Assembly (NCBI GenBank): GCA_964535735.1
Contig: CAZHTM010000005.1
Location: 13,017 to 77,016, forward strand
Direction of reading: 5' to 3'
Origin: an uncultured bacterium
GTDB taxonomy: Bacteria; Fidelibacterota; Marinisomatia; Marinisomatales; J089
Length of the DNA: 64,000 nucleotides
Shown one piece after another: positions 6,026 through 42,756 of the stretch; positions within the stretch are counted from its first letter, which is position 1; every line of letters starts with the position of its first letter. The notes beneath the pieces are model-generated. The model did not search any database, had not been told where the DNA came from, and saw only the letters and a list, made by a program, of their open reading frames with translations. The position numbers and the translations under genes were made by a program.

Positions 6026-6252
6026 CTACGTATCTAATCGGCGATTTAGCCATGAAAACCGGATTATCACTCCATACCCTCAATTACTATCTCCGAATAG
6101 GACTGATTAAAGAAGTGGGGCGTAGCGAAAGCAGTAATTATCGATATTTTAATGACCAGACCGTTGAAGAATTAACGCGGATTATTGACCTGCGCCTCAA
6201 GCATGTCCCTCTCCGTGAAATCAAATGGAGAAAAGAAAATGGAATATTATGA
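6022..6252 (+). CDS. Short MerR-family HTH transcriptional regulator (76 aa, no effector domain)
   Basis: IGDLAMKTGLSLHTLNYYLRIGLI...YRYFNDQTVEELTRIIDLR matches the MerR N-terminal winged HTH. It is the first gene of the co-directional pilus cluster. Confidence 0.75.
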   Translation: MTTYLIGDLAMKTGLSLHTLNYYLRIGLIKEVGRSESSNYRYFNDQTVEELTRIIDLRLKHVPLREIKWRKENGIL

Positions 6253-7069
6253 ACATTTGGGGCTAACCAAAGAACCTTTCTCCAATACTCCCGACCCGGA
6301 GTTTTTCTACCATTCCCATGAACATCAAGAAGCATTATATCGGTTAGAGATTGCTATTCGCATGCGGCGGGGGTTGAGCGTAATTCTGGGCGCGGTTGGC
6401 ACTGGAAAAACCACCTTGTCACGCATTCTTCTACAGCAATTTGATGGAGATCGCGACAAATTTGTGTTTCGGTTGATCTTAGATCCTAACTTTCAGTCCG
6501 AATACGAATTTATCAAAGCGATCATGGAAGTTTTCGATATTCGGTCAATTCCCAATTCTACTATTGAATGTAAAAATGTGCTTCAGAATCATTTATATAA
6601 AATTTCATTGATCGAGGAACGAAATCCTGTACTAATCCTGGACGAAGGACAAATGTTAACGCCTACGTTTATGGAAGTATTACGCAATCTTTTGAATTAC
6701 GAAACCAATAAACAAAAATTGTTACAGGTGGTCATTTTTGCCCAACCGGAGTTTCTGCTCAAATTAAAAAAGAAACCCAATTTCAATGATCGCATCGCAT
6801 TGGGATATTCCATCAATCCTCTAAATCAAGAAGAGACGGACGAATTAATTCGATTTCGATTGCAACAGGCTGGTGCAAACGGGAAAACAATCTTTAATGA
6901 AGAGGCTATTGAACACATTTATTTTTATACCAAAGGATCACCACGTCAGATTATCAATGTATGCCATGAGGCGCTCATCACCATGATCCGCAACGATAAA
7001 TCCTTGGTGGACGGCCCAGTGATTCAAGGTATTATTAAGCAAAGAGAAAAGTGGGACGCCCTTGTCTGA
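6239..7069 (+). CDS. ExeA/GspA/MshM-like AAA ATPase (secretin-assembly-associated family)
   Basis: MEYYEHLGLTKEPFSNTPDPEFFYHSHEHQEALYRLEIAI...GAVGTGKTTL matches the ExeA N-terminal consensus. I moved the start from 6185 to ATG 6239, where the family homology begins. Confidence 0.8.
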   Translation: MEYYEHLGLTKEPFSNTPDPEFFYHSHEHQEALYRLEIAIRMRRGLSVILGAVGTGKTTLSRILLQQFDGDRDKFVFRLILDPNFQSEYEFIKAIMEVFDIRSIPNSTIECKNVLQNHLYKISLIEERNPVLILDEGQMLTPTFMEVLRNLLNYETNKQKLLQVVIFAQPEFLLKLKKKPNFNDRIALGYSINPLNQEETDELIRFRLQQAGANGKTIFNEEAIEHIYFYTKGSPRQIINVCHEALITMIRNDKSLVDGPVIQGIIKQREKWDALV

Positions 7070-10000
7070 CTTTCAGGAAAATGCTACCAATCGACTTCTG
7101 GAAATCCTGAGAAAACAAGGGACGAAGTCACGGAAAAAGCCGAAACCGGCAGAACCGGATCCGAGTCCCAAAACGAAATCGGAGAGTCCAGAATCACAGT
7201 CCACCTCAATATCTTCTGCACAGGTCCATAAAGATCATGTGATAGACTTCCTACTAAGTGATCTGGAATTGGAACCAGCGGTTGAGGACTCCATTCCTGA
7301 AAAGGAATCTGTCGATGTTCCCGAAATACCGATAGAACCAATTGAGGAGCCTCGAGACACTGCACCTGAGATAACCATCGACGAATCGCCTGAAGATGAC
7401 GCGGCCGAACTGGTATTTCAAGCTGAACAACCGGAGCAGATTGAACCGGATGTTGCCTCCAGTTCACCGGCCGATGAAGACGACCAAGAATTAACATTTA
7501 TCCCGGATGATGAAGAAGGCGTGGGACCTCCCAAATTTGATGAATCTTCACCGCCCTCTGAAACCGGCGAAAAAGATGATCAAGAGGACTTCTCACTCAC
7601 GTTCAGGGATGAACAGGGCGTCGAACCGGCTGTTACAGAGGGCGACAGCGAAACAGCGGAACTCCCCTCGACGGAAGACTCTGAATTAAATCTGGAATTA
7701 GAGCCCTCACCTGCACCCTCTTCCTTAAAGGAGGAAGCGCCAGCAACAGATTTATCTCCGGATAGTGAAGATTCTGTCCTTGAATCCGATGAATTATTTG
7801 ACGAGACACTCGATTCCGCAGACACTCCACCGGAGAAAGACACACCTGTAGAAGAAGTACAAACATCAACTGAGGCTGAAACCACCCCTGAAGCGTCGGA
7901 ACCGGCACCTGAATCAGATTCCCCCGAGGGAACTGACGATATTGAATTTGATTTTGAAGCGTTAACCGAATCCTTAAAAGCAAACAAAAAACAAGCCCCC
8001 CCAGAGGGTTCGACAGATTTTGATTTTAGTCCGCTGGAATCCACAGAACCGGCCGTCATCGAAGATACTTCTGATGCTGAGCCGGAGTCTTTACCGGACG
8101 AGGAGCCAAAAGCAGAGGTGCCCACCAGCACAAGTGAAGAATCGCCAGAAGCAGAAGAACCGGACCAAAAACAAACGGTGGAGCCAACTGACAGTGAAGA
8201 GGATCCGTTTGCCAATGTAGATTTTGGCGGTCGTGAGCCTATTTCAACGGAGGAGCAGGAATCGGATACAACGACGGAAATCCCCGTTGAAACCGAGGAA
8301 CCGGAAGAAGATGTTTTGGCGGAAAAAGAGGAACAGGAAGAACCGACTCCGGACGAAGAAGATAATTTTGATGACTTTGATGATGATCTGGAAGAATCGG
8401 ACACGGTCACGTTTTTCTATCAGAAAGAAAAGAAATTTTCCGTTAAATATCTCTTGTCGAAAATTCGTCCAAATCGTTCCCGAATCGGTCTGGACATTGG
8501 CAGCTATGCCATTAAATATGTTCTGGCCAATGATATTAGTGGAGAAATCTCAATTGAAGATTTCGGTTATGTAAAAATACCCAGCAATATTCGGGGGAAT
8601 AAAAAAGAAACAGCCACATTTATAAAAAATACCGTTCGGTCTATTCTAAGTGAAAACGAACTTAAAAAATCCAAGATCAACTTACTAATTAGCGGATCAG
8701 ACATTGGAATTAAGAATATTCAGATGCCCAAAGTTGGGAAAAAGGAGCTACAGGAAGCCGTAAGATGGTCAACAAAAAAGCACCTTTCCTTTTCCGCTGA
8801 CGAATCGGTTCTGGACTTTAAGGTTTTAAAAGAGACCGTTGTTGATGGCGTTCCCAAATTAGATATTTTAGTGGTAGCGGCTTTGGAATCACTGGTGGAA
8901 GATCAGATCAGTTTTCTTTCAGGTCTGAAAATACCCAGTAAAATTCTTCCCACCCCGCTGGCCATGTGGCGGTATTATGTGGGTCATTACCCTACCGAGA
9001 ATCTGCAGAATGTGATGGTGATAGACATTGGACATGAAACGACCATGATCAATGTGATTCATGATCAGGAATTGCGGTTTGCTCGGGAAATCGGCGTATC
9101 CGGAAAAGATTTAACGGAAGCCTTAATCGGATCTATGACCACTTCGCGGGGAGAACGCGTTAATGTAGAAGAAGACCAGGCCGAATTCTTCAAAATCAAA
9201 TACGGGTTTCCACTAAAAGAAACTGAAAATCGAGTTACGGATGAAGATATTCCTCTGGTGCAACTCTCGTCCCGGCTCCGATCTCCCTTAGAAAAACTCG
9301 CGAACGAAATCCAACGATCCATTCAATATTACGCGAAGGAATTCTCCTTCGGTCCTATTGATAAAATCTACCTTTGCGGTGGCACCGCTAGTATGATGAA
9401 TTTAGTGGATTTTCTGTCTGATTATTTAAATATGGACGTTCAGGTCAGTGATCCTTTGAGGATTTGGACCATTGAAAAATCGTTATCAAACCTGGAACTC
9501 CTGGAAGATAATTCAACCGCTTTAGCGACGCCGGCTGGCATCTCCATCGATATTTCGCCAGAACTCAACCTTCTTCCACAAAAATACGTTCAGGAAACTC
9601 AGACACGGACGTTAAAAACAGTATTTCGTCTCTTTCTGTTAGCAGCGGTTGTATCGGTAGTAAGTTTATCAACCACAGTCTCCATGAAAGGGAAAACCTA
9701 TACATCTGAACTGGAATCTTTAAAACAACGGGTCGGCCAGATGTCCTCCCTTGAGAAGCAAGTTGTCCAATTACAGGAAACAAAAAAAGACGCACAAAAG
9801 AAAGTGGGTGTGCTGAAAAAAATGTTTAATGAACCCACATTCAACGTTCAAGTTTTACGCATCATCAGCAATTTGCTACCAGAAAATGTATCGTTGGAGT
9901 CGCTGGAAAACATCGGTCATATCACATCATCTTCGCAGGCACAAATCCGCTTAGTCGGATATATTGAAACCACAAAATATGACGCCAATGTTCGGTTAGC

Positions 10001-10136
10001 AGAACTGGTTATGCGGTTGGAAAATTCAGGATACATGACAAATGTGGTCTTAAAAAATTCCCAACCCGTGGAGAATGATTATTTCACCGGATTGCAATTC
10101 GAAATTCAATGTCAGGTAAATGGTTATGAAGGTTAA
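7062..10136 (+). CDS. pilM: PilM-PilN fusion protein with ~450-aa acidic, Pro/Ser/Thr-rich N-terminal extension (1024 aa)
   Basis: aa ~470-830 have actin-like PilM features (IGLDIGSYAIKYV, VIDIGHETTMINV, LCGGTASM). An NLLP motif at 9567-9578 is followed by a TM helix (FRLFLLAAVVSVVSL) and a coiled coil, which equals PilN. The first ~445 aa are Asp/Glu-rich low complexity. TTG start. Confidence 0.8.
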   Translation: MSDFQENATNRLLEILRKQGTKSRKKPKPAEPDPSPKTKSESPESQSTSISSAQVHKDHVIDFLLSDLELEPAVEDSIPEKESVDVPEIPIEPIEEPRDTAPEITIDESPEDDAAELVFQAEQPEQIEPDVASSSPADEDDQELTFIPDDEEGVGPPKFDESSPPSETGEKDDQEDFSLTFRDEQGVEPAVTEGDSETAELPSTEDSELNLELEPSPAPSSLKEEAPATDLSPDSEDSVLESDELFDETLDSADTPPEKDTPVEEVQTSTEAETTPEASEPAPESDSPEGTDDIEFDFEALTESLKANKKQAPPEGSTDFDFSPLESTEPAVIEDTSDAEPESLPDEEPKAEVPTSTSEESPEAEEPDQKQTVEPTDSEEDPFANVDFGGREPISTEEQESDTTTEIPVETEEPEEDVLAEKEEQEEPTPDEEDNFDDFDDDLEESDTVTFFYQKEKKFSVKYLLSKIRPNRSRIGLDIGSYAIKYVLANDISGEISIEDFGYVKIPSNIRGNKKETATFIKNTVRSILSENELKKSKINLLISGSDIGIKNIQMPKVGKKELQEAVRWSTKKHLSFSADESVLDFKVLKETVVDGVPKLDILVVAALESLVEDQISFLSGLKIPSKILPTPLAMWRYYVGHYPTENLQNVMVIDIGHETTMINVIHDQELRFAREIGVSGKDLTEALIGSMTTSRGERVNVEEDQAEFFKIKYGFPLKETENRVTDEDIPLVQLSSRLRSPLEKLANEIQRSIQYYAKEFSFGPIDKIYLCGGTASMMNLVDFLSDYLNMDVQVSDPLRIWTIEKSLSNLELLEDNSTALATPAGISIDISPELNLLPQKYVQETQTRTLKTVFRLFLLAAVVSVVSLSTTVSMKGKTYTSELESLKQRVGQMSSLEKQVVQLQETKKDAQKKVGVLKKMFNEPTFNVQVLRIISNLLPENVSLESLENIGHITSSSQAQIRLVGYIETTKYDANVRLAELVMRLENSGYMTNVVLKNSQPVENDYFTGLQFEIQCQVNGYEG

Positions 10137-12584: not shown

Positions 12585-13691
12585 ATGGCATTGAATCTCA
12601 TTAAACTTCTTACAGCTGTATCCCGGAGCGGTGCTTCTGATTTCCACCTCAGTTCCGGTTATCCTCCGATCATCCGTAAAAATGGTGAAACACGTTGGTT
12701 GGATCAACCCGCCCTAACACCTCAAGAAGCCCACGATGCGATTTATGGGATTCTGACTGAGCGTCAAATCGCCATCTTTGAGGAATTTCATGAAGTCGAT
12801 TTAGGTTGGCATATTAAAGGTGTAGGCCGATTTCGTGTGAATGTATACAGTTTTGCCAATGGAATTGGGGCCGCCTTTCGGGTTATTCCGGATAAAATTT
12901 GGACCCTGGATGATATAAACGCGCCTCCCGCATTACAAAAACTCGCAAAAGCCCGTAAAGGTCTTATTTTGGTCACTGGCGCTACGGGTAGTGGGAAATC
13001 CACAACGCTAGCGGCGATTGTGGATTATATCAACAGTACTCGGCGGGGCCATATTTTAACCATTGAAGACCCAATTGAGTTTGTGCATAAAAGTAAAAAA
13101 TGTTTAATCACTCAGCGGGAAATCGGTACGCATAGCCATTCTTTCGCTAATGCCCTCCGGGCGGCTTTACGGGAAGACCCGGATGTCATTTTGGTTGGTG
13201 AAATGCGTGATCTCGACACCATCTCCCTGGCCTTAACGGCTGCCGAAACCGGGCACCTTGTTCTGGCAACATTGCATACTGGTAGTGCACCGGAAGCCGC
13301 TGACCGGGTCATTGATGTGTTTCCCTCCAGTCAACACAACCAGATTCGAGCGATTTTCTCCAGCACATTGGAAGGCGTAGTAGCCCAAAAACTGGTACGA
13401 ACCAAACACGGTGACGGACGGGTAGCCGCCATGGAAATCATGTTGGGAACCAATAGTATAAAAAACCTGATTCGGGAACGGAAATCACACCAGTTGCGGT
13501 CCGCCATTCAAACGTCCACCGAAGACGGGATGCAGACGAGCGATCAAGCCTTGATCCGATTACTGGACGAAGACGTCATTACTCTTGAAGAAGCCCAAAT
13601 GTATGCTGAAGAACTTCGGCCATTTGAAGAATGGGCCGGAAGTATCCGAAACGTCCTTCATTCCAAACGGAGAGCAAAGTCCACTATATGA
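12585..13691 (+). CDS. pilT: PilT-family retraction ATPase, copy 1
   Basis: GASDFHLSSGYPPIIRKNGE, Walker A GATGSGKST, and the AIRNLIRE-like motif SIKNLIRE. Confidence 0.85.
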   Translation: MALNLIKLLTAVSRSGASDFHLSSGYPPIIRKNGETRWLDQPALTPQEAHDAIYGILTERQIAIFEEFHEVDLGWHIKGVGRFRVNVYSFANGIGAAFRVIPDKIWTLDDINAPPALQKLAKARKGLILVTGATGSGKSTTLAAIVDYINSTRRGHILTIEDPIEFVHKSKKCLITQREIGTHSHSFANALRAALREDPDVILVGEMRDLDTISLALTAAETGHLVLATLHTGSAPEAADRVIDVFPSSQHNQIRAIFSSTLEGVVAQKLVRTKHGDGRVAAMEIMLGTNSIKNLIRERKSHQLRSAIQTSTEDGMQTSDQALIRLLDEDVITLEEAQMYAEELRPFEEWAGSIRNVLHSKRRAKSTI

Positions 13692-15210: not shown

Positions 15211-15576
15211 ATGTCAAAACGTGTCTTAGTCGTTGATGACGATCCCAATATTGTCAATCTTATCCGCGCATTTTTAACCAAAATTGGTTTTGAGGTTTTG
15301 GAAGCCAATGATGGCCTGGATGGTCTTCAAAAAGCCCGATCTGAAAATCCGGATCTGATTATTTTGGACGTGATGCTACCTAAATTGGATGGTTTTAAAT
15401 TCAGTCGCTTACTGAAATTCGATGAATCCCACCGCAATATTCCCATCCTTATGTTAACAGCTAAATCCGATGAAAAAGATGAAAAAATCGGACTAGCGAT
15501 GGGAGCCGATGCTTACCTAACGAAACCATTTAAAAACCAGGAATTAATAGACCAGGTGAAAGCCCTTGTTGCCTGA
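15211..15576 (+). CDS. Stand-alone CheY-like response regulator receiver
   Basis: VLVVDDDPNI, DLIILDVMLPKLDG, ILMLTAK and AYLTKP supply all canonical receiver residues. Confidence 0.85.
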   Translation: MSKRVLVVDDDPNIVNLIRAFLTKIGFEVLEANDGLDGLQKARSENPDLIILDVMLPKLDGFKFSRLLKFDESHRNIPILMLTAKSDEKDEKIGLAMGADAYLTKPFKNQELIDQVKALVA

Positions 15577-16365: not shown

Positions 16366-18018
16366 ATGGCCAAGAAACGAATAGGTGAAATGCTGATTGA
16401 TGCTGGTGTGCTAACACCGGAGCAGTTGCATGAAGGTTTAAAAAAGCAAAAAGAAACTGGCGAACCTCTTGGTAAAGTCATCACCAAACTGGGATTTCTT
16501 ACCGAACATGATTTTATTATCGCCCTGAGTCAGCAACTTGATCTTCCTTATCTTTTTCTCAACAATTATAATTTTGATCCAGAAGTAAAATCGTTAATTC
16601 CGGAAGAATACGCCCGACATAATAAAATTATTCCACTCTTTAAAATTGGCTCAACTCTGATGATCGGTATTTCCGATCCCACCAATATTGACATTTTTGA
16701 TGAATTATCGCGCATGACCAAAATGGAAATTGAGCCCACCCTCTGCGCTGAAAGTGAAATTTTAGAATCTCTGGATGAAATATACGGGACGTCCCGTGAT
16801 ATGGACTCGGTCTTGCAGAAAATACGCACCATGGATCGGGATAAAAAACAACGGCCGGACGAAGAATCCCCCATGATCAAGCTGGTGGAATTGATGTTCG
16901 AACAAGCGGTAAAAATGAAAGCCAGTGACATCCATATTGAGCCGGAAGAATCCCTCCTGAGAGTTCGATACAGAATTGACGGTGTGATGCAAACCGTTTA
17001 TGAACATCCTGCAGATTTACAGGATGAAATCATTTCTCGCGTTAAGGTGATGTCAAATTTAAACATCACTGAAAAACGCACGCCTCAGGATGGTCGATTC
17101 AACATGGTTATTAGCGAAAAACCCTTTGATTTCCGGGTATCTACGCTCCCAACAGTCTATGGAGAAAATGTGGTGATCCGTATTTTGGATCAAAGTAGCA
17201 TTCAAATGAAACTGGCCGATTTGGGTATGGCACCGGAAATGTTAAAGGCGTTTAACCAGGCGCTCCATGAACCGAATGGCATTATTTTGGTCACCGGGCC
17301 TACCGGGTCTGGAAAATCCACAACACTATATGCTTCCCTGAATACTATTAATTCACCGGATAAAAATATCATTACGATTGAGGATCCGGTGGAATATCGG
17401 CTGCCTTTAATCCGGCAATCCAATGTCAATCCTAAGATCGGTCTCTCATTCGCCGCAGGATTGCGCTCCATTCTCCGGCAGGATCCAGATATTATAATGG
17501 TGGGTGAAATTCGTGACTCGGAAACCGCGACCGTTGCTGTGCAGGCGGCTATGACCGGTCACTTGGTTCTCAGTACCTTGCACACCAACGACACTGTCAG
17601 TTCGGCAACTCGGTTAATTGATATGGGTGTGGAACCATTTTTAGTGGCATCTTCTACAAAAGCCATACTGGCTCAACGACTGGTTCGAAAAATCTGTAAT
17701 CGGTGTAAAATGGCCTATGAGCCAGAAAAAGAAATTCTAGAAGAGTTGAATCTGGCCAACATTAAACAAAAAATAAAATTCTATAAAGGTAAGGGATGTA
17801 AAAACTGTCGGCACACCGGTTATAAAGGTCGAGTTGGACTTTATGAGATTTTGCTTATTACCGAAGGGGTACGACGATTAATTGTCGCGAAAGCCGGATA
17901 TGATAACCTTTTAGATAAAGCCTTGGAAGAAGGCCTGATTCAGTTAAAATATGATGGAATTCGAAAAGTTATCCAGGGAATAACCACTCTGGATGAAGTT
18001 TTGAGGGTATCGTCCTGA
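16366..18018 (+). CDS. pilB: Type IV pilus extension ATPase (PilB/MshE type) with N-terminal MshEN-like c-di-GMP-binding motifs
   Basis: Walker A GPTGSGKST and the tetracysteine CNRC...CKNC. The N-terminus has RIGEMLIDAGVLTPEQLHEGLKKQ, a 5-aa spacer, then LGKVITKLGFLTEHDFIIALSQQ. Confidence 0.9.
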   Translation: MAKKRIGEMLIDAGVLTPEQLHEGLKKQKETGEPLGKVITKLGFLTEHDFIIALSQQLDLPYLFLNNYNFDPEVKSLIPEEYARHNKIIPLFKIGSTLMIGISDPTNIDIFDELSRMTKMEIEPTLCAESEILESLDEIYGTSRDMDSVLQKIRTMDRDKKQRPDEESPMIKLVELMFEQAVKMKASDIHIEPEESLLRVRYRIDGVMQTVYEHPADLQDEIISRVKVMSNLNITEKRTPQDGRFNMVISEKPFDFRVSTLPTVYGENVVIRILDQSSIQMKLADLGMAPEMLKAFNQALHEPNGIILVTGPTGSGKSTTLYASLNTINSPDKNIITIEDPVEYRLPLIRQSNVNPKIGLSFAAGLRSILRQDPDIIMVGEIRDSETATVAVQAAMTGHLVLSTLHTNDTVSSATRLIDMGVEPFLVASSTKAILAQRLVRKICNRCKMAYEPEKEILEELNLANIKQKIKFYKGKGCKNCRHTGYKGRVGLYEILLITEGVRRLIVAKAGYDNLLDKALEEGLIQLKYDGIRKVIQGITTLDEVLRVSS

Positions 18019-18113: not shown

Positions 18114-19439
18114 TTGGATCATCCACCCGTTCGGATTCAAAAGGTTGATACGGGTTATGACGCCTTGAATTATTTACAATTGAATTCCGTGGATGGCGTA
18201 ATCGTGACCGATAAACTGGACCTGATTTCTCCTGTCGATACTATTAAGCGGCTTACAGCGCATCCTCATCGGTTTCCCATCTGGTTATGGATCACCCAAC
18301 CCACCATTCAAACTTTAAGTAATTATCTTAAGGCTGGTTGTGACCGCTGGTTATTGTCATCCTCATCAAAGGACATATTAATACAACTGATTAAAACCGG
18401 ATTAAACCAATTCGGGTCCTATTCAATTGTAGACCAGAAGCGCTTTCAAATACAAAAAATATACGGAATCAATAACCTGATCGGTTCGTCTGCCGTGATG
18501 ATGGACTTGTATTACGCTCTGGAACGAATCATCAATACCGAAATATCGGTTTTAATCCAGGGAGAAAGTGGCTCCGGGAAAGAACTTGTAGCCCGGTTAA
18601 TCCATTTAATAAGTCCCCGTGCCGACGAAAAAATGGTGAGTTTAAATTGCGCTGCTGTTCCTAGTAATCTCATGGAAAGTGAATTGTTCGGTTTCGAAAA
18701 AGGCGCTTTTACCGGCGCGAATACACAAAAAAAGGGGAAATTCGAATTTGCCCACAAAGGAACCCTGTTTTTAGATGAAATCGCCGACATGGACCTTTTG
18801 ATGCAAAGTAAAATCCTCCGTGTGCTGGAACTTCAAGAGTTCGAACGTATTGGAAGTAATGAGCCAAGGAAAGCCGATGTCCGCATCATTTCCGCCACCA
18901 ATAAAAACCTAGATAAAGCCATTCAAAAAAATCGATTCAGGTTAGATTTGTTTTACCGAATAAACAGCTTCACAATCTCCATACCACCTCTTCGTGAACG
19001 GTACGGGGATTTTTTACCCTTAATGGTATATTTTCTCCAGCAGTCCAACAAAAAAAACCATCGAAACATACAGACTTTCGACTCGGATGTACTATCCGTT
19101 CTCTATTCATATTCGTGGCCTGGTAATATTAGACAGTTTGAAAGTTTTTTGATCCGCGCGGCATTGTTTTCCGACGGACCCCATTTGAAAGCGGAGACCG
19201 TAGCCTCATTAATCAAGCCGCTTAAGAAAGCAAACTTTACAACCGGGCATATATCTTCAACAGAACGAAAGCCATCCGTATCGACCATAGAAGAGATGGA
19301 GCGGACAGCAATATTAAATGCCTTAAAAGAAGTGGGCGGAAATGTGACTGCTGCCGCTAAGAAATTAGGGTTGAGCCGTGTCACTGTTTGGCGTAAAATG
19401 GAACGCTATAAGATTAAAAACGAAGGACCACGAGCTTAG
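18114..19439 (+). CDS. pilR: Sigma-54-dependent transcriptional activator (PilR-like) with degenerate receiver domain
   Basis: AAA+ GESGSGKE, the GAFTGA motif (EKGAFTGA) and a C-terminal Fis-type HTH (AAKKLGLSRVTVWRKMERY). TTG start. Receiver-like sequence continues upstream in frame to 17997 with no canonical start. Confidence 0.8.
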   Translation: MDHPPVRIQKVDTGYDALNYLQLNSVDGVIVTDKLDLISPVDTIKRLTAHPHRFPIWLWITQPTIQTLSNYLKAGCDRWLLSSSSKDILIQLIKTGLNQFGSYSIVDQKRFQIQKIYGINNLIGSSAVMMDLYYALERIINTEISVLIQGESGSGKELVARLIHLISPRADEKMVSLNCAAVPSNLMESELFGFEKGAFTGANTQKKGKFEFAHKGTLFLDEIADMDLLMQSKILRVLELQEFERIGSNEPRKADVRIISATNKNLDKAIQKNRFRLDLFYRINSFTISIPPLRERYGDFLPLMVYFLQQSNKKNHRNIQTFDSDVLSVLYSYSWPGNIRQFESFLIRAALFSDGPHLKAETVASLIKPLKKANFTTGHISSTERKPSVSTIEEMERTAILNALKEVGGNVTAAAKKLGLSRVTVWRKMERYKIKNEGPRA

Positions 19440-20762: not shown

Positions 20763-20822
20763 ATAAGTTAAATTAGAATTAGATAAAATTTGCTAAACAA
20801 GACACAACCAGGAGAATACATA

Positions 20823-21233
20823 ATGAAACGCAACCAAGAAGGATTCACCCTGATTGAATTGGTCATGGTGATTGTGATTCTGGGTATCTTAGCCGCCGTG
20901 GCAATTCCGAAATTTGCTAATCTGACAACTCAGGCGAATGAAGCCGCTGAAGATGGTGTAATTGGAGGACTGAGATCCGGAGTATATACGTACAGTGTCA
21001 ATCAAATGGCTGCAGGATTTGGTCAATCATATCCTACGGATCCATTTGACGGTCTTGATCAAAAACCCACTGGATATACATCTACTTCCCCCACTCCCGC
21101 CGCTAACAATACCTGGGGCTTTAATTCAACAAGCAATTATATATACCACCAACGAAGTAATGGTGACAAATATTATTGGTCCTATTCTTCCGGCACGGGA
21201 ACTATTGGAACGCGGACAACTACTGCTCCATAA
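20823..21233 (+). CDS. pilA: Major type IVa pilin (136-aa precursor, 7-aa leader)
   Basis: MKRNQEG|[24 protein letters not shown] class III signal. AGGAGA RBS. I moved the start from 20790 to ATG 20823. Confidence 0.85.
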
Positions 21234-22330: not shown

Positions 22331-24010
22331 ATGAATTCCAAACTCAACCATATCTCTGAAAAGATTCTCTTTCTGGCTCTTCTATTCTTTGGCTTTATCG
22401 TCAGCTACCATCGTATTCAAACCGGAGATATCTGGTGGAGTATGGCTGAAGGACGGTATATTTTTGAAAACGGGTATCTCCCGCAAGCAAATATCTTCTC
22501 TTATACAAATCCTGATGCCCCCTGGTCAACACCGCAATGGTTATTTTCACTATCTGCTTTTTTAATCTACCAATTGGGTGGAATTCCATTATTCATCATT
22601 TTGCGGATAATCCTTGTCGAAACAATTGTATTAACACTTTTCAAGACATTCCAAAATGAATTCAAAACTGTTTTATTGTCTGTTATAGGAATTGTTTGGG
22701 TTCTATTTGCTATCAATTTTAGACTTTTATTCAGAGCGCATTTATTTTCCGTGGTTTTTTTCACTTTGACAGTCTATTTTGTTTCTCGACCTGTTAAGAA
22801 AACCTCATACATAATATTATTTTTTATATTTCTCATCTGGAGCAATATTCATGCGGGTGTCTTATTCGGTTTATTCTTAATCCTATTTGTCTCGGTAGAA
22901 AACATAGCGAAAAATTTTCTTTTTAAACATATGACTTTTTATGAGTCCATTTTAAAGTCAAAATCTCTATTGATATTATTTTCAGTTTGTTTTCTTGGTG
23001 CTTTAGTCAACCCTCATCTTATTCAATTTATTACGTATCCCTATTCCCATCTCAATGTGAACGATCTCATATTGATCTCAGAATATATGCCCCCCAGTTA
23101 TTTTGGATTTGATAAGATGTTGTATTATTGGCTGACGATACCCATTTTTTTCTTATCCCTAGTGTTTTATGGAGTGAAAAAAAAGCAACTACCACCTTTT
23201 TTGTTATCAGCACTTTTTTTCCTTTTTCTCTCAATAAAATACAATCGGATAATCCCATATTTCGAAATCGTGGCAATAGGAATCATCCTGAAAACACCTA
23301 CTCAAGGGATTCTCCAGCGTTGGCACAATTTCCGATTTCAATGGATTTTGCATTTAGTTGCCATATATGCCCTGGTTATCGGTCCCTTAAACTTAATCAG
23401 TGGCGATAACAGAATCATGCCCACCTATAATTTTGGTATTGGTATTGACCCAACCGAGCTCCCTGTCCATGCAGTTCGCTTTTTAAATCAGCACCCGGCA
23501 CCTGATCCATATTTCAACGATTTTTTCTGGGGTGGATATTTAATCTGGAATAGTTATCCCGAAAAGAAAGTATTTATTGATGGTCGCATTCCCGCCTATC
23601 CTTCTGATTTTATCCATCTATACGAGGGCATGTCGTGGAATAAACAGATATTCGAAGCGGTTGATAGTTTATATAATTTTCAAACTCTTGTTATTATTAA
23701 CCCATATTCATTTCATTGGATGGACACCAGTCCCTTGGATAGAAACAATTGGGCATTAGTCTTTTGGAATAGTTACCAACACTCTGTCTATGTTAAACGC
23801 AATGAACAAAATCGGGCTTATATTAAAGAATTCGAATATAAACTTTACGATAAACCGTACACACCAGCAGGCTTGGCTCCCCTCATTCGTACAAAAGAAG
23901 ACACCTTACTTGCAATACAGGAAATCAAGCGACATAACTATTGGGCTCCTGATCCTATCGATAGATACTTGTTAAAATTATTGGACAATCCCCAGGCATC
24001 TGATGATTAG
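22331..24010 (+). CDS. Polytopic membrane protein (559 aa), GT-C-like glycosyltransferase architecture suspected
   Basis: At least 10 hydrophobic helices followed by a ~170-aa soluble C-terminal domain. I see no catalytic motif I can name, so the function is inferred from architecture and context only. Confidence 0.45.
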   Translation: MNSKLNHISEKILFLALLFFGFIVSYHRIQTGDIWWSMAEGRYIFENGYLPQANIFSYTNPDAPWSTPQWLFSLSAFLIYQLGGIPLFIILRIILVETIVLTLFKTFQNEFKTVLLSVIGIVWVLFAINFRLLFRAHLFSVVFFTLTVYFVSRPVKKTSYIILFFIFLIWSNIHAGVLFGLFLILFVSVENIAKNFLFKHMTFYESILKSKSLLILFSVCFLGALVNPHLIQFITYPYSHLNVNDLILISEYMPPSYFGFDKMLYYWLTIPIFFLSLVFYGVKKKQLPPFLLSALFFLFLSIKYNRIIPYFEIVAIGIILKTPTQGILQRWHNFRFQWILHLVAIYALVIGPLNLISGDNRIMPTYNFGIGIDPTELPVHAVRFLNQHPAPDPYFNDFFWGGYLIWNSYPEKKVFIDGRIPAYPSDFIHLYEGMSWNKQIFEAVDSLYNFQTLVIINPYSFHWMDTSPLDRNNWALVFWNSYQHSVYVKRNEQNRAYIKEFEYKLYDKPYTPAGLAPLIRTKEDTLLAIQEIKRHNYWAPDPIDRYLLKLLDNPQASDD

Positions 24011-26102
24011 AAATTTAGTGTCAATTCTTTGGGTGGGATTATTAATCATCCTACCCTTCGACCGGGGACCCGACACTCTGGGATTTAATACATTTTTAGT
24101 CTGTAGTGCGGCAGGTTTTTTATGGGTTTATTATATCGTAAGCATCAAGAAGACACACTACACAATCAGACAAGGATCAACCCTTTTAGCGTTTGGACTT
24201 TTTATTACTTGGATTTTGCTTTCCAACCTATGGACAATTGATGCATTTTCAACATATTACAAATCGCTGACCTACCTTTCAGCATTTATCATATTTTTTG
24301 TTACTATAAACTTACCAAAGTCGGACGTATCTGAATCATTCCTTATAAATACAGTTGTAGTCATCTTTGTAATAGAATTAGTCCACGGAGGAGTTCAATT
24401 TTTCTTCTCTGAAACAGGAGTCCCAATACAAGGTAGCGCCTTTCTTCGATCTCATGGAATTTTTGTCTGGCCCAACACTTTTGCCGGCTTCTTAGTCCTC
24501 ATCTGGCCACTGGTTTTTTGGATATTCCTGGAGTCAAAAAATAAAATAAAATCTGTCATCCTATATTTCGTTTTAATCACGGGAGTTTTCGTACTCGGTA
24601 CCACATATTCGCGTGGTGGTTGGTTAGCATTTTTTCTGTCATCCGGAGTCGTGAATCTTGTAATTATAATCTATTCCGGTCGATTCCGTTACTTTCTTAA
24701 CAAATTAAGGTGGGTAGGTTTCGGAATTGTCGTCGTTTTAATTTTGTTTAGTTTAATTCCAAACAGTCAGGTTGGCTCACGAATAACTTCATTCTCTGAT
24801 TTGGAATCTTTCGGTAGACTGGAAATATGGCAAAATACATTAACATTGGCGCTTGAAAAGATCTGGACCGGGTATGGTTTTCGCACCTTTCACATCACCA
24901 ATACACAATGGTTACCACCAGGAATACGCTTCGATTTTGCTCATAATGATTATCTCCAATTCCTTCTTGAATTGGGTGTCATTGGATTGGGACTATTCCT
25001 GGCTTTCCTGGCACTTCTGTCTTGGAAGGGGTGGACCTGGATCATATCACCAAACCAAAGCAATCTGAAATTCGCAACGATTACCGGCATGGGTGTAGGG
25101 GCATTAGGATTGTTGTTTCATACTTTTGTGGATTATCATCTATATATTCCAGGGAATCTGATGATCTTCCTCCTATTTATCGCCCTATTCCTTAAAAATC
25201 ATCCACAAACCACTACCCGGAAGTTTCCCATCACAGGAGAACATTTGTCCATCCCCTCTCAAAAATTTCTTGTAGCATTAACAATCATTATTCTTATCAT
25301 CCTAAGCTTGGTCCAACCGATCTCAAAATATTTTACTTCACTGGGTTTGCACGCGAAACAACTTCATCAATATGATCAGGCTTTGGAATATTACCGGTAC
25401 GCCTCCGCATTGGAACCACGTGTTGGCGACAATGCGGTTCATATTGGATCGGTTTACAGTACCCAAGCATTGTTAGAAGCTGATCACTTTACCAAGTGGA
25501 AATGGATGAATCTAGCGGAAAAGGAATTTCGCCACGCCACAACATTGGGTCCATTAACCTGGAATTACTGGCAGGCCCGGGGTGAGTTTTATAAACGCCA
25601 TTTATTGCAGTTTATCGCCAACGGTTTTCCATTGGAAAAACTTACGGTCCTTGATACCACTATGCCCGGCTGGGAGGACATGTGGCTCACTGTTCCAAAA
25701 ATGAATCGTTTTTTTCAGAAAGCGCTAAAATTATATCCCAATAATCCAGATTTGTGGATCGACCGCGCAGAAACGTGGCTCCAGTTTGAGCAACCGGAAT
25801 CATCACTCGTTTGGTTTGATAAATACATCGCACAAATGCCAAACGATTTATCGGCTAAGGTGGCCTACAGTGAAGCTCTATTGCAAATCGGGTGTTGGAA
25901 ACAATCTCTGAGTACGTTAAACAAGGTCATTGCAATCGATTCCTCTTACGGATATGCCTGGTATCTAAGAGGGCAAAATTTTTACCACCTTAATCAACTC
26001 GATTCTGCCCTGTTAAGTTTTAAATATGCAAAAAAAATTAATCCTGATGCACAACACATCACTTCATGGTTAGATTCTATTCTACTTAAAGGAATTTATT
26101 GA
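24003..26102 (+). CDS. O-antigen ligase (Wzy_C) family membrane protein with C-terminal TPR repeats; PglL/TfpO-like pilin O-oligosaccharyltransferase candidate
   Basis: SRGGWLAFFLS and FDFAHNDYLQFLLELGVIGLGLFLAF match the Wzy_C signature. The C-terminal ~250 aa are TPR-like (YDQALEYYRYASALEP...). Confidence 0.7.
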   Translation: MIRNLVSILWVGLLIILPFDRGPDTLGFNTFLVCSAAGFLWVYYIVSIKKTHYTIRQGSTLLAFGLFITWILLSNLWTIDAFSTYYKSLTYLSAFIIFFVTINLPKSDVSESFLINTVVVIFVIELVHGGVQFFFSETGVPIQGSAFLRSHGIFVWPNTFAGFLVLIWPLVFWIFLESKNKIKSVILYFVLITGVFVLGTTYSRGGWLAFFLSSGVVNLVIIIYSGRFRYFLNKLRWVGFGIVVVLILFSLIPNSQVGSRITSFSDLESFGRLEIWQNTLTLALEKIWTGYGFRTFHITNTQWLPPGIRFDFAHNDYLQFLLELGVIGLGLFLAFLALLSWKGWTWIISPNQSNLKFATITGMGVGALGLLFHTFVDYHLYIPGNLMIFLLFIALFLKNHPQTTTRKFPITGEHLSIPSQKFLVALTIIILIILSLVQPISKYFTSLGLHAKQLHQYDQALEYYRYASALEPRVGDNAVHIGSVYSTQALLEADHFTKWKWMNLAEKEFRHATTLGPLTWNYWQARGEFYKRHLLQFIANGFPLEKLTVLDTTMPGWEDMWLTVPKMNRFFQKALKLYPNNPDLWIDRAETWLQFEQPESSLVWFDKYIAQMPNDLSAKVAYSEALLQIGCWKQSLSTLNKVIAIDSSYGYAWYLRGQNFYHLNQLDSALLSFKYAKKINPDAQHITSWLDSILLKGIY

Positions 26103-26121: not shown

Positions 26122-27123
26122 ATGCCACAAAAGCTAAATAGATTTGAACGATATTTAAGTTCCAATTTAGGGTATGGGTCATCTTCTTTTACTTATAAAG
26201 AACTATTATTATTTAATGAAAAACTATTAGCTCAAATCCGGGCAGGCCAAATTCTCTCGGATGCACTTGAAGCTGTATTTGATACCACGGGAAATCGCGT
26301 CCAGAGGATGGTGCTATTCAGTATTACAAACGCCGTAAAAGCCGGTGCCCCTCTCTCCCAGGCTATGCTTACATTTAAAGATATTTTCCCTAATTTTTAT
26401 ATTGCCATGATTATGGCGACGGAAAGAAGTGGAAAAATGATTCAGGGTCTGGAAGCCATGAGCTTACACCTGAAGAACGAAAATAAATTGTTCGATTATT
26501 ACAATGTCTCTATGTTTTACCTGAGACTTCTGATTTATCTATTTTTAGCGGGAATGGTCTATTTATTTGTACGCTTGGGGATTTTAACTCTCTCTCTTGA
26601 CAGCATTCTCTACTCCACCGGCACATTAGCCTTTCTTGCTTTAATAGGTAGTTGGGTTAGTCGTATTCTACAGAAAAATGAAGTACTGAAAGAAAATATA
26701 TTAAACATTATACCATTTGCCGGAAAGATTCATAACTTGGCCTTGATCAGCAGTTATTGTTTTCTTTTTAATGTTTTTCATAGATCAGGTGTCCCCATTT
26801 CCCAGATCAATGGTTTACTTGTCAATTATATTGGCGGAGCTCATTTAGCTCAGGATATCCAACGACTAGGAGAATTGAGCCAGTCCAATCCCGACCCCGA
26901 TCGTTTACCTAAATATTTCACAGTTCTTCCGGATACTCTGGCGCGTGAAATTATTCTCTTTGAACATGGTAAGACTAAGTTCAATACCATTCAAAATTAT
27001 TCTCAGTTTGTCAGCATTGAAATCGATGACATTGCTGCTCAGATTCTTAGCTTGGAAAAACGAATTTTAATGGGCTCTTTAAGTATTGGCGCTTTAGTTA
27101 TTTATTTGTCCTTGATCTATTAA
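26122..27123 (+). CDS. Divergent, short GspF/PilC-family platform-like protein (333 aa)
   Basis: One recognisable T2SSF repeat (LSDALEAVFD...VKAGAPLSQAMLTFKDIFPNFYIAMIMATERSGKMIQGLEAM) plus TM helices. The second repeat is weak. Confidence 0.6.
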   Translation: MPQKLNRFERYLSSNLGYGSSSFTYKELLLFNEKLLAQIRAGQILSDALEAVFDTTGNRVQRMVLFSITNAVKAGAPLSQAMLTFKDIFPNFYIAMIMATERSGKMIQGLEAMSLHLKNENKLFDYYNVSMFYLRLLIYLFLAGMVYLFVRLGILTLSLDSILYSTGTLAFLALIGSWVSRILQKNEVLKENILNIIPFAGKIHNLALISSYCFLFNVFHRSGVPISQINGLLVNYIGGAHLAQDIQRLGELSQSNPDPDRLPKYFTVLPDTLAREIILFEHGKTKFNTIQNYSQFVSIEIDDIAAQILSLEKRILMGSLSIGALVIYLSLIY

Positions 27124-27245: not shown

Positions 27246-28286
27246 ATGGTCGATATTCTGGAATTGTTGAGATTTACTATTTCTTCCGGCGCTTCAGACC
27301 TCCATTTAAATGCGGGAGCCCCGCCCATGGTGAGAGTTGACGGAATGATGAAAAAAATTGATGTTCCTGATCTGCTACCAGAAGATATCCATCGTCTGAT
27401 TTATGATATCATGACTGACCAAGAACGAAAACGTTTTGAAGAAAATTGGGAATTGGATTTTTCTCGCGAAATCGGGTCCATAGGACGTTTTCGTGTAAAT
27501 GTTTATTACCAGAATGATGGAAAGGCTGCTGTCTTTCGTACCATTCCTACCAAAATTTTAACCATGGAAGAACTCAATTTACCCGATGTGATTAGAAAAT
27601 TATGCAATTTGGAGAAAGGGCTGGTCTTGGTTACCGGTCCAACCGGTAGTGGTAAATCCACAACCCTGGCAGCCATGGTAGACTATATCAATTCCGTTCA
27701 ACGATCCCATATCATTACTATTGAAGATCCGATTGAATTTGTTCATAAAAGTCGGTCTTGTCTAATTAGCCAACGGGAAGTGGGCCGCGATACTAAATCT
27801 TTTTCAAATGCTCTGCGGAGCGCATTGCGGGAAGATCCGGATGTAATCCTGGTAGGTGAAATGCGAGATCTGGAAACAATTGCATTGGCTATCAGCGCTG
27901 CGGAAACCGGACATCTTGTATTTGGAACGCTACACACCAATAGCGTGGCAAAAACCGTGGATCGAATCGTTGATGTATTTCCCACGAATCAGCAAGGACA
28001 AATCCGATCTATGTTTGCCGATTCTATTGAGGGTATCATTTCACAAATACTTTTACGTCGGAAAGAAGGGAAAGGTCGGGTGGCCGCTTTAGAAATATTA
28101 GTGGGAACAAATGCGATTCGAAGTTTGATCCGGGAAAATAAAACATACCAGATTGAATCAGCACTACAGACGGGATCATCCCTGGGTATGTGTACCATGG
28201 AACAAGCCCTTCGAAAGCTACTACAGGATGGAGCTATATCACGTGAAGCGGCCCAAGAAATTATTCCTAAAATGGACGTAACCTGA
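27246..28286 (+). CDS. pilT: PilT retraction ATPase, copy 2 (most canonical)
   Basis: GASDLHLNAGAPPMVRVDG, GPTGSGKST and AIRSLIRE, 346 aa. Confidence 0.9.
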   Translation: MVDILELLRFTISSGASDLHLNAGAPPMVRVDGMMKKIDVPDLLPEDIHRLIYDIMTDQERKRFEENWELDFSREIGSIGRFRVNVYYQNDGKAAVFRTIPTKILTMEELNLPDVIRKLCNLEKGLVLVTGPTGSGKSTTLAAMVDYINSVQRSHIITIEDPIEFVHKSRSCLISQREVGRDTKSFSNALRSALREDPDVILVGEMRDLETIALAISAAETGHLVFGTLHTNSVAKTVDRIVDVFPTNQQGQIRSMFADSIEGIISQILLRRKEGKGRVAALEILVGTNAIRSLIRENKTYQIESALQTGSSLGMCTMEQALRKLLQDGAISREAAQEIIPKMDVT

Positions 28287-28307: not shown

Positions 28308-29426
28308 ATGAATTTTAGCGATCTGATGAAATTAATGGTGGAAAAAGATGCCACCGACCTTTACATCTCAGTCGGAAATCCACCGATGTATCGAATTGGG
28401 CATGAAATCTATCCTGTAAGTTCTACCAAGCTTACTCCCGCTATGACCGAAAAAATTGCATATTCATTTTTAGATGAAAAACAGGCCAGGGAATTTCAAG
28501 AACATCATGAGATCGATATAGCCTATTCGGTACCGGGAGTTGGTCGGGTGCGGATAAATATTTTCCTGCAACGTGGATCAGTTGGATTAGTATTGAGACA
28601 TATCAAGTCGGAAATCCGCACTCTGGAAGACCTGGGCATGCCGGCTATTATCAGTAAAATTTGTGATACACCTCGTGGACTTGTTCTCATCACCGGTGCC
28701 ACCGGCAGTGGTAAATCCACAACGTTGGCAGCCATGATCGACCACATCAATTCAACCCGTACGGGGCACATCGTTACCATCGAAGACCCCATGGAATTTT
28801 TACATTACCATAAAAAATGTATTGTCACCCAACGTGAAGTGGGAATGGACACCGAATCCTATGCCGTCGCATTGAAAAGTGCCTTACGTCAGACACCGGA
28901 TGTTCTACTGATAGGAGAAATTCGAGATCGGGAGACCATGAAGGCGGCTTTAACTTTTGCAGAAACCGGTCATTTAGTTTTCAGTACCTTACATTCAGTC
29001 AATGCATCACAAACACTTGAACGGATCATGAATTTCTTTCCCGTTGATAATCACCCAATGATTCGTCAACACCTTTCATTAAACTTACGCGCGATCATCT
29101 CTCAGCGACTCGTCACTCGCAAGGATGGTTCCGGGATGGTAGCTGCCCTGGAGATTCTGGTGAATACATCACGAATTAGTGACTTGATGTATAAAGGTCT
29201 CATTGATGAAGTAAAAACAACCATTGGCGCATCCCGTGAGTCGGGAATGCAAACTTTTGATCAACATCTTTTTGACCTTTACAAGGAAGGGATAATTTCC
29301 ATGGATGATGCCCTCACAGCAGCAGACAGCGCCAATGATTTGAAACTACATATGAAAATGGAAGGTGCCGAAGTGGAAGCCGATCGTAATATGATGAATG
29401 AAACCATTACGTTTCGCGATGATTGA
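28308..29426 (+). CDS. pilU: PilU-like PilT-family ATPase
   Basis: DATDLYISVGNPPMYRIG and GATGSGKST. It lacks the AIRNLIRE motif (SRISDLMYKG) and has an extended C-terminus, as in PilU. Confidence 0.8.
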   Translation: MNFSDLMKLMVEKDATDLYISVGNPPMYRIGHEIYPVSSTKLTPAMTEKIAYSFLDEKQAREFQEHHEIDIAYSVPGVGRVRINIFLQRGSVGLVLRHIKSEIRTLEDLGMPAIISKICDTPRGLVLITGATGSGKSTTLAAMIDHINSTRTGHIVTIEDPMEFLHYHKKCIVTQREVGMDTESYAVALKSALRQTPDVLLIGEIRDRETMKAALTFAETGHLVFSTLHSVNASQTLERIMNFFPVDNHPMIRQHLSLNLRAIISQRLVTRKDGSGMVAALEILVNTSRISDLMYKGLIDEVKTTIGASRESGMQTFDQHLFDLYKEGIISMDDALTAADSANDLKLHMKMEGAEVEADRNMMNETITFRDD

Positions 29427-33046: not shown

Positions 33047-33066
33047 ATCCTAATCTATGTATCTTG

Positions 33067-33098
33067 TCCTGGTCGGGGAACATCTTCCTTGACCAGGA
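33067..33098 (+). terminator. Extended hairpin between P1 and P2 (possible attenuator/partial terminator)
   Basis: TCCTGGTC-GG-GGAA-CATC-TTCC-TT-GACCAGGA followed by TTATTCTATTC. It lies in the 63-nt gap before ATG 33110. Confidence 0.35.
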
Positions 33099-33109
33099 TT
33101 ATTCTATTC

Positions 33110-36345: not shown

Positions 36346-36402
36346 TGTTTTCCGTTTTTCCTCTAGTTATTTGTAATATGTTACTTCAAGATACCACACA
36401 TA

Positions 36403-36609
36403 ATGAATCCAATTAATTTCATTTTAATAATCGCTATCCTCGCCCTGGTCTTCGGTCTCTTATTGATGTTTAATCCCGAGTTTGTAAAAGAATTAAATGA
36501 ACTGGGAAATAAGATTATTGCCACCGATGAACAAATGCTGGCACATCGCTACATTACTGGTGCTGTTTTAGTGATCTTGAGTCTGATTCTGATTGTTATT
36601 AGTTGGTGA
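36403..36609 (+). CDS. Small 2-TM membrane protein (68 aa), paralog of 29423-29638
   Basis: MNPINFILIIAILALVFGLLLMFNPEFVKELNELGNKIIATDEQMLAHRYITGAVLVILSLILIVISW aligns with the 71-aa protein at G, P, N, N-[RK]-[VI]-I, D-[DE] and TGA. Confidence 0.55.
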   Translation: MNPINFILIIAILALVFGLLLMFNPEFVKELNELGNKIIATDEQMLAHRYITGAVLVILSLILIVISW

Positions 36610-36638
36610 ACAACAGGAAACGGAAGACCCTGTAATTC

Positions 36639-40681: not shown

Positions 40682-40799
40682 TTCTCAACTCAAATTAAGT
40701 CATCTATGAACATGTTTAAGCCGAAAAAATATCCTTTGTTTAGCATGACTTGCAGGGTTGCGAAATAATACCGGGTGGTTTAGTTTCTGCAACATTCCC

Positions 40800-42413: not shown

Positions 42414-42452
42414 CATCCCATTTATAGTGATCTTGACATCTCTTTATCAGAT

Positions 42453-42581
42453 TTACATATTATTTATCACGATATAGAAAACAACAGCGTAGATTACGGT
42501 AATAAGAAGTAAAACCCAGAGCGGATATTTACGTTTAAATAATATTTCTTTCCAGAGTGGTTGAATGCTTTCCTGTCCCAA
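42453..42581 (-). CDS. Candidate 42-aa single-TM miniprotein (MGQESIQPLWKEILFKRKYPLWVLLLITVIYAVVFYIVINNM)
   Basis: TTG start 6 nt downstream of a perfect AGGAGG (complement of 42588-42593). It is below the ORF-track cutoff and I translated it by hand. Confidence 0.3.
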   Translation of the reverse strand: MGQESIQPLWKEILFKRKYPLWVLLLITVIYAVVFYIVINNM

Positions 42582-42666
42582 ATTTTTCCTCCTAATTCTG
42601 TTTTTACCTTAAAGTGTACCTAGTAACAGGATCATTTGCAAGCATTGACTCGTGACATAGGATTCG

Positions 42667-42696
42667 TTGAAAGTCATCTATTTTTTACAGTAATAT
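42667..42696 (+). promoter_or_regulatory. Sigma-70-type promoter candidate TTGAAA-N18-TAATAT upstream of the Hpt gene
   Basis: TTGAAA at 42667-42672 and TAATAT at 42691-42696, about 60 nt upstream of GTG 42757 (RBS AGAGG). Confidence 0.35.
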
Positions 42697-42756
42697 CAAC
42701 AGGTATTAATATTACCTCAATAAAAAGTACAACACGTCATATCTCAGAGGTGCATC

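Follow-up and report, generated by a model that had tools for sequence, protein, structure and literature searches.

Extension ATPases of the PilB/MshE type that carry an N-terminal MshEN domain have been described as widespread (PMC5013675). In MshE, PilB2, Myxococcus xanthus PilB and PilF, cyclic di-GMP (c-di-GMP) is bound and is required for pilus functions (PMC5013675, PMC11656802, PMC11731258). MshEN-type control of PilB is known in Vibrio, Thermus, Myxococcus and Clostridium. Here we describe a candidate for the same control in the Marinimicrobia, a marine phylum that is uncultured and abundant worldwide. The window, by which we mean the whole stretch of 64,000 nucleotides that was analysed (GenBank assembly GCA_964535735.1, contig CAZHTM010000005.1, positions 13,017 to 77,016; guanine-cytosine content 43%), includes a type IVa pilus gene cluster. 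Its pilB gene (16366–18018, + strand) encodes a type IVa pilus extension ATPase of 550 amino acids, composed of an MshEN N-terminal domain and a T2SSE ATPase domain. A full-text literature search for Marinimicrobia, type IV pili (T4P) and c-di-GMP found no paper that links the three.

We consider it probable, at roughly 0.6, that the MshEN domain of this PilB binds c-di-GMP and thereby influences piliation, with a receiver-GGDEF (REC-GGDEF) diguanylate cyclase encoded at the border of the pilus cluster as the likely dedicated source, fed by one or more hybrid kinases through a histidine phosphotransfer (Hpt) protein.

The MshEN domain of PilB

Nucleotides 16378–16536 (+) translate to RIGEMLIDAGVLTPEQLHEGLKKQ-KETGE-PLGKVITKLGFLTEHDFIIALSQQ, PilB residues 5–57, in a 24+5+24 layout. 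Motif I covers residues 5–28 (16378–16449, +) and motif II residues 34–57 (16465–16536, +), both of them recognised in the translation, in the alignment with V. cholerae MshE (PDB 5HTL) and by the NCBIfam model NF053729. The KETGE spacer between them (16450–16464, +) has five residues, the same number as its counterpart KNTGR in V. cholerae MshE. In a phmmer search against PDB sequences, PilB residues 3–140 aligned to 5HTL with an E-value of 4e-20 and no gap over the motifs and spacer, and NF053729, "cyclic di-GMP-binding domain, MshE-related", matched residues 5–57 over its entire length (model positions 1–53 of 53; 60.7 bits, cutoff 38). Since the alignment is gapless and the match full-length, the resemblance reflects homology and not chance. 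The original prediction, made from the sequence alone, had claimed a tandem MshEN motif pair in the arrangement of Vibrio MshE; the translated sequence is identical to the one given there, and the five-residue spacer and the MshE-type arrangement both hold in the alignment. The Pfam MshEN match (PF05157, 66.3 bits) falls on residues 58–144, the MshEN_C alpha/beta subdomain (16537–16797, +). The current Pfam model therefore spans only the C-terminal subdomain, with both motifs located just upstream of it.

The motifs were compared to a strict 24-residue pattern, RLGxx[LVI][LVI]xxG[LVI][LVI]xxxxLxxxLxxQ, expected in two tandem copies with a spacer of about five residues. Motif I departs from it once, by isoleucine in place of leucine at position 2 (I6), and motif II three times, by proline for arginine at position 1, threonine for [LVI] at position 7 and phenylalanine for leucine at position 17. 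Against the relaxed motif of Wang et al. 2016, [RKPN]hGxxhhxx[GAS]hhxxxxhxxxhxx[QNKRYWST] (PMC5013675), the only departure in PilB is T40, which occupies a bundle-core position and not a ligand contact.

Wang et al. 2016 define six key residues in each motif. The arginine at position 1 stacks on guanine, the leucine at position 2 completes a leucine triangle with residues 17 and 21 of the partner motif, the glycine at position 3 offers its backbone NH to the Hoogsteen edge, and the glutamine at position 24 bonds to ribose and phosphate (PMC5013675). The corresponding residues of PilB are R5, I6, G7, L21, L25 and Q28 in motif I and P34, L35, G36, F50, L54 and Q57 in motif II, where G43 also agrees with the consensus. 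Nine of the 12 contact positions are identical to the consensus, and the three that differ, I6, P34 and F50, are each permitted by the relaxed motif. Non-arginine residues at the first position have precedents among proven binders: in PilF of T. thermophilus, P335 at position 1 of a GSPII-C motif is "the only deviation" in a domain that binds with a dissociation constant (KD) of about 460 nM, and GSPII-B binds at 6 nM with K167 and L196 at its two first positions (PMC11731258).

In a 40-sequence alignment of PilB N-termini, proline is the most frequent residue at the position of P34 (14 of 40 homologs). Among the 12 closest sequences, the window PilB included, G7, L25, G36, G43 and Q57 are invariant, Q28 is found in 11, and position 5 is arginine or lysine in all 12. 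The contact residues are kept across homologs that are 46–89% identical over the first 160 residues. A regular expression count found both relaxed motifs in only 19 of 118 PilB homologs; such counting is too brittle a measure of binding competence, and profile scores and per-position conservation were used instead.

An AlphaFold2 model of the N-terminal domain, built on the 40-sequence alignment (predicted local distance difference test score 86), places helices at residues 6–12, 18–31, 35–41 and 47–58, followed by the alpha/beta subdomain; the predicted fold is thus a four-helix-bundle N-subdomain joined to an alpha/beta C-subdomain. A Foldseek search of the PDB with this model gave 5HTL, "MshE with cdg", as its top match (template modelling scores 0.77/0.87, root-mean-square deviation 2.0 Å, 32% identity). 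We calibrated the NF053729 score on domains that had been characterised before. V. cholerae MshE (KD about 0.5 uM) scored 85.9 bits, PilF GSPII-B (6 nM) 63.1 and PilF GSPII-C (about 460 nM) 61.9, and the window PilB N-terminus, at 65.7 bits, lies within this range of proven binders (61.9–85.9 bits); Geobacter PilB scored 68.0. As a discriminator between binders and non-binders the score fails, for the non-binding PilF GSPII-A, at 55.0 bits, also clears the cutoff of 38.

Non-binders share both the profile match and the fold, and these are consequently necessary and not sufficient for binding. The N-terminus of the window PilB could accordingly be a structural or protein-docking domain that does not bind c-di-GMP, like GSPII-A, XpsE and the PilZ-binding N-terminus of Xanthomonas citri PilB, all of which are among its strong fold matches (7LKM, 9G1W, 2D28). 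P34, T40 and F50 in motif II would be in keeping with such a role. Yet both terminal glutamines (Q28 and Q57), both position-3 glycines and the triad leucines L21, L25, L35 and L54 are present, and the contact residues are conserved among homologs. The substitutions associated with loss of binding in XpsE, namely G11V, L29R, G40L, L54H, L58C and Q61V (PMC5013675), all fail to appear in the window PilB. At the position of MshE R38, XpsE has glycine and the window PilB has P34, a proline for which GSPII-C is the precedent. GSPII-A, where a histidine ends motif I and motif II has only 45% of the consensus (PMC11731258), differs from the window PilB in both respects. In addition, no PilZ gene was found among the scanned open reading frames (ORFs) of the window. 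We therefore regard a non-binding role as improbable. The prediction of binding follows from the contact residues, which are intact and conserved, and not from membership of a profile or a fold. With a complete, conserved MshEN_N module, PilB is a good candidate for a c-di-GMP receptor.

The remainder of the protein carries a T2SSE domain (residues 165–547, 474.6 bits in Pfam). Walker A (residue 311), an Asp box (339), Walker B (373), a His box (398) and the CxxC pairs of a tetracysteine motif (444 and 478) are all in place, and the ATPase is predicted to be active. The closest PDB sequences are PilF and PilB (E 1e-145 to 1e-152), and the nearest homologs carry a Neomarinimicrobiota/Marinimicrobia annotation. 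TIGR02538 (type_IV_pilB) is the top NCBIfam family, with 624.1 bits; this is under its equivalog cutoff of 675.65, a shortfall that probably reflects divergence at the level of the phylum. GspE is the second family (TIGR02533, 596.4 bits). Identity as a GspE of a type II secretion system was rejected on the higher TIGR02538 score and on the context of three PilT, PilM/N/O and pilin genes. The type IVa pilus context is completed by PilC, PilD and a secretin.

An Hpt and diguanylate cyclase gene pair at the pilus border

A stand-alone Hpt protein of 99 amino acids is encoded at 42757–43056 (+). It passes the Pfam Hpt model (PF01627) only marginally, with 26.0 bits where 24.6 are required. The phosphotransfer histidine, His46, lies in HNMKGSGGGYG, which fits the HxxKG motif of Hpt domains; FGHNxKGSGGGYGL is invariant in the orthologs of four relatives (L001, L008, L010 and L094), and H46-NMKGSGGGYG is shared by all five proteins when the window is included. 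The window Hpt also resembles Hpt domains that are fused to REC-GGDEF elsewhere.

The REC-GGDEF gene (43101–44003, +) starts 45 bp after the Hpt gene and encodes a putative diguanylate cyclase of 300 amino acids (Pfam GGDEF 156.8 bits, REC 64 bits). Its receiver has the acidic pocket, the acceptor D58, T87 and K109. In the GGDEF domain, GGEEF is at residues 213–217 and the inhibitory site (I-site), R204-T-T-D207, is five residues before it, the canonical spacing; INDTYGHSCGD is at 179–189, with the Asn/Asp guanine-specificity pair present. The position equivalent to PleD D344 is aspartate, so c-di-GMP is the expected product and not cyclic GMP-AMP (cGAMP); a Hypr-GGDEF, the cGAMP synthase type, was rejected on the same residue, which there would be serine. 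The top NCBIfam matches are the PleD family (200 bits) and DgcR (160 bits), both under their equivalog cutoffs. Judged by these residues, the protein has the marks of a phosphorylatable diguanylate cyclase, and it is predicted to be active. An Hpt protein and a receiver-GGDEF with intact GGEEF and RxxD I-site had been named at these positions in the original prediction, and both are borne out by the profile matches and motifs.

In order to see how this gene pair is placed in relatives, homologs of the REC-GGDEF protein were followed to their contigs (L numbers; identities are to the window protein). In the window, as in L010, L001, L008 and L094, the Hpt-REC-GGDEF pair lies at the 3' border of a T4P cluster. 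The gene order of L010 (85%) is as in the window. In L001 (66%), L008 (67%) and L094 (68%), a minor-pilin/spermine-synthase block is followed by Hpt, REC-GGDEF and a convergent hybrid kinase of 770–800 amino acids, with Hpt directly after the minor pilins in L094. The pair in L003 (68%) is at a contig end; the contig begins just upstream, and the Hpt is an uncalled ORF. L004 (55%) has no Hpt, and its REC-GGDEF gene is divergent and flanks the T4P cluster on the opposite side, which indicates that the association with the cluster survives rearrangement. Three more distant homologs also lack Hpt: L006 (47%) has only a spermine-synthase-like gene nearby, and L011 (53%) and L092 (44%) have no pilus genes within 10 kb. 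When the contigs were scanned with the REC-GGDEF protein, one true ortholog (L010) was found together with 79 unrelated GGDEF proteins of 26–45% identity. Within the clade the linkage is thus consistent at identities of at least 55% and through rearrangement; it is not universal, and it argues for a functional tie between cyclase and pilus.

Coupling of Hpt to REC-GGDEF is supported, in the manner of a Rosetta-stone hint, by homologs of about 510 amino acids (P0220, P0151, P0154 and P0198) that combine Hpt and REC-GGDEF in a single protein, arranged as Hpt-REC-GGDEF-REC or Hpt-REC-REC-GGDEF; P0220, from the Fidelibacterota, has the former. In L001, L008 and L094, the kinases beside the pair are PAS-PAS-HisKA-HATPase-REC proteins with a C-terminal REC and no Hpt of their own. 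Together, the adjacent kinases and the Hpt fusions support a relay from hybrid kinase to Hpt to REC-GGDEF as the type of circuit.

In the circuit that we propose, one or more hybrid kinases would autophosphorylate and pass the phosphoryl group from their C-terminal receiver to H46 of Hpt and on to D58 of REC-GGDEF. The phosphorylated cyclase would then make c-di-GMP, its output presumably capped by feedback at the RxxD I-site, and the messenger is predicted to bind the MshEN_N bundle of PilB. By analogy to MshE, PilF and M. xanthus PilB (PMC11656802), bound c-di-GMP might promote or stabilise an extension-competent PilB, and piliation would track the signal.

Several points weigh against this proposal. 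A distance of 25 kb separates the cyclase gene from pilB, and there is a gap of 343 bp with promoter-like sites between the last pilin-like gene and Hpt; a promoter and terminator scan of 42300–44300 found the promoter-like sites in this gap and no terminator, a result that is not decisive. c-di-GMP is diffusible, and the remaining genome may encode other cyclases and receivers. The homologs at 44–53% identity (L006, L011 and L092) stand apart from both Hpt and pilus genes, the spermine-synthase-like gene of L006 excepted. On the receptor side there are the three departures in motif II and the non-binders among the strong fold matches; moreover, the ATPase rate of Clostridium perfringens PilB2 is unaltered by c-di-GMP (PMC11656802).

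Part of this evidence would also suit a PilB that binds c-di-GMP while Hpt-REC-GGDEF is a general source of the messenger, or serves a different output, for example exopolysaccharide or adhesion, with its position beside the pilus genes meaningless for PilB. Diffusibility of the messenger, the gap before Hpt and the more distant REC-GGDEF homologs away from pilus clusters all suit that explanation, and M. xanthus PilB is reported also to signal to exopolysaccharide production (PMC5544727). It has to contend with a T4P linkage seen in no fewer than five genomes at 66–85% identity and, in rearranged form, at 55%, and no other c-di-GMP receptor domain was found, as PilZ, EAL and HD-GYP domains were all absent from the scanned ORFs (the principal ORFs of the window). 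We consider a general source to be on the unlikely side and favour the cyclase at the pilus border as a source dedicated to PilB.

Hybrid kinases and the composition of the pilus cluster

A hybrid histidine kinase of 1877 amino acids is encoded at 52700–58333 (−). Pfam and the sequence give the architecture REC-PASxN-GAFx2-PAS-HisKA-HATPase-REC, with a receiver at each end and, between them, numerous PAS domains and a pair of GAF domains; the protein lacks an Hpt domain. The kinase with a C-terminal receiver that the original prediction had placed here is therefore genuine. That prediction had also drawn a phosphorelay from hybrid kinase to Hpt to REC-GGDEF and, by way of c-di-GMP, to PilB, with this protein as a plausible upstream donor. 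As a type, the relay is supported by the adjacent kinases in L001, L008 and L094 and by the fusions; the choice of the 1877-residue kinase as donor is not supported, as it belongs to a different paralog group from those neighbours.

In favour of this kinase as the cognate donor for Hpt, REC-GGDEF and ultimately PilB, it is the nearest hybrid kinase, the D, T and K of its C-terminal receiver are intact, it has no Hpt domain, and in L010, the 85%-identical relative, it is again placed 6–9 kb from REC-GGDEF. Its gene, however, is on the other strand from that of the cyclase, at a distance of 8.7 kb, with six unrelated genes in between (a ClpB-like gene, PepF, a GltS-like gene, a hydrolase and DAGK among them), and its position is kept only in the close relative L010, where there is too little divergence for this to be informative. 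Its kinase core and REC are 36–38% identical to the 770–800-residue neighbour kinases of L001 and L008 and 48–53% identical to other Marinimicrobia paralogs, including P0248 and P0256 on the contig of L001, and orthology to the syntenic kinases was rejected on this basis. The slot of the syntenic kinase is taken by the ClpB-like gene in the window and in L010, and the window has no ortholog of that kinase. By virtue of its proximity the 1877-residue protein is a plausible candidate among several; that it is the one cognate donor we hold to be unlikely.

The HisKA-HATPase-REC core has many paralogs at 45–53% identity on Marinimicrobia/Fidelibacterota contigs, several per contig, which suggests that PAS-rich hybrid kinases have multiplied in this lineage and may feed into a small number of Hpt proteins. 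A tentative extension of the proposed circuit is that the Marinimicrobia possess a hard-wired module of PAS-rich kinase, Hpt and REC-GGDEF at the T4P border as a dedicated local c-di-GMP source, from which the neighbour kinase has been lost in the window and replaced by paralogs that converge on the same Hpt. If so, environmental signals sensed by PAS and GAF domains would directly gate pilus extension, and with it particle attachment, in an abundant ocean lineage.

Beyond the kinase gene, around 58674–60053 and 60312–63193 (both −), two small multihaem c-type cytochromes with paired CXXCH and weak MtrC/MtrF-like matches adjoin an NtrC-type HAMP kinase and sigma54 response regulator pair. A small cytochrome akin to those of the window is also found in L092, close to its distantly related REC-GGDEF gene.

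The type IVa pilus gene cluster itself extends over roughly 36 kb (6185–42413, +), as delimited by Pfam and NCBIfam scans. It encodes an AAA_22 ATPase (ExeA/MshM-like), a PilM-PilN fusion, PilO, a secretin, three PilT-family ATPases, a single-domain REC, PilD, PilB, a sigma54 activator, PilC, a pilin and minor pilins. The single-domain CheY-like receiver (15211–15576, +; Pfam Response_reg 102.7 bits) is directly upstream of pilD-pilB and overlaps the start of pilD, and the REC-PilD pairing also occurs in L004, the relative at the 55% level (REC at 581–949). This receiver could be a second acceptor or an alternative endpoint for the Hpt relay.

The AAA_22 ATPase gene (6185–7069, +; TIGR03015-like, 175 bits) precedes that of the PilM-PilN fusion (7062–10136, +; 1024 amino acids), which has an N-terminal extension of about 470 residues with no Pfam match. 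Together the two represent MSHA-like (MshI/MshM) content inside an otherwise PilB/PilT-type cluster. The three PilT/PilU-family retraction ATPases (12585–13691, 27246–28286 and 28308–29426, all +) score 455–498 bits with TIGR01420, and a half-length PilC-like T2SSF gene (26122–27123) adjoins the second PilT pair. Between pilB and pilC, the sigma54-dependent activator (18114–19439, +) has a truncated receiver, matched by the Pfam REC model at 18 bits, below cutoff, over profile positions 24–110 only; a pseudo-receiver is the probable identity of its N-terminus, and there is no gene for a PilS-like kinase next to it. An O-antigen-ligase (Wzy_C) and TPR protein (24003–26102, +), encoded near the pilin gene (20790–21233), may be a pilin glycosylation enzyme. 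The region 30209–42413 (+/−) encodes outsized N-methyl "minor pilin" proteins of 537–551 amino acids (at 33089, 34732 and 40758) and an ORF of 945 amino acids with no domains. A spermine-synthase-like membrane protein of 813 amino acids (36639–39080) is also encoded inside the cluster and is kept near it in L001, L006 and L008.

Comparison with known systems

V. cholerae MshE (5HTL; PMC5013675) shares with the window PilB the 24+5+24 layout, the two-subdomain fold, the fusion to a T2SSE/PilB-type extension ATPase and the glutamine, glycine and leucine-triad contacts of both motifs; the PilM-PilN fusion and the ExeA/MshM-like AAA_22 ATPase add to the likeness at the level of the cluster. The two differ in that domain identity is 32%, with I6, P34 and F50 in the window for L10, R38 and L54 of MshE, and in that PilB (TIGR02538) is the best full-length family in the window, three PilT genes and a sigma54 activator are part of the cluster, and the host is a member of the Marinimicrobia and not a Vibrio.

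The GSPII-B and GSPII-C domains of T. thermophilus PilF are likewise MshEN-type domains on a T4P extension ATPase, with non-arginine first residues (K167, L196 and P335) and NF053729 scores (62–63 bits) close to those of the window (61–66 bits). PilF has three such domains in tandem, the window PilB only one, and motif II of GSPII-B is one residue short, with a D266-R268 contact contributed by the C-terminal subdomain (PMC11731258).

The PilB proteins of M. xanthus, Chloracidobacterium thermophilum and Geobacter are built as in the window, with one MshEN domain and an ATPase, and they are its nearest PDB sequences over the full length (E about 1e-139 to 1e-145). For the first two, c-di-GMP binding is established and affects piliation and biofilm (PMC6957770, PMC11656802). 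Geobacter PilB, unlike that of the window, has a seven-residue spacer and an asparagine at the turn glycine position. We know of no dedicated cyclase at the edge of the pil clusters of these three organisms.

The window cyclase resembles PleD, WspR and Leptospira DgcR in having a receiver with an acceptor aspartate ahead of a GGEEF-type domain with an RxxD I-site. PleD has two receivers where the window protein has one, and the CheA-type kinase of the Wsp system has no counterpart in the window module. As for the relay, the HptB network of Pseudomonas aeruginosa employs a stand-alone Hpt that works with hybrid kinases and influences c-di-GMP. Another hybrid kinase/Hpt relay with an influence on c-di-GMP is HmrABCX of Caulobacter (PMC11481889).

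The PilB finding leaves the understanding of c-di-GMP signalling unchanged. The newer element, in a modest sense, is the conserved physical attachment of an Hpt/REC-GGDEF module to a T4P cluster. At the pilus border this module offers a testable wiring for pilus deployment, for example in attachment to sinking particles. Its physical link to the pilus genes is also a point of difference from PleD, WspR, DgcR and the known relays.

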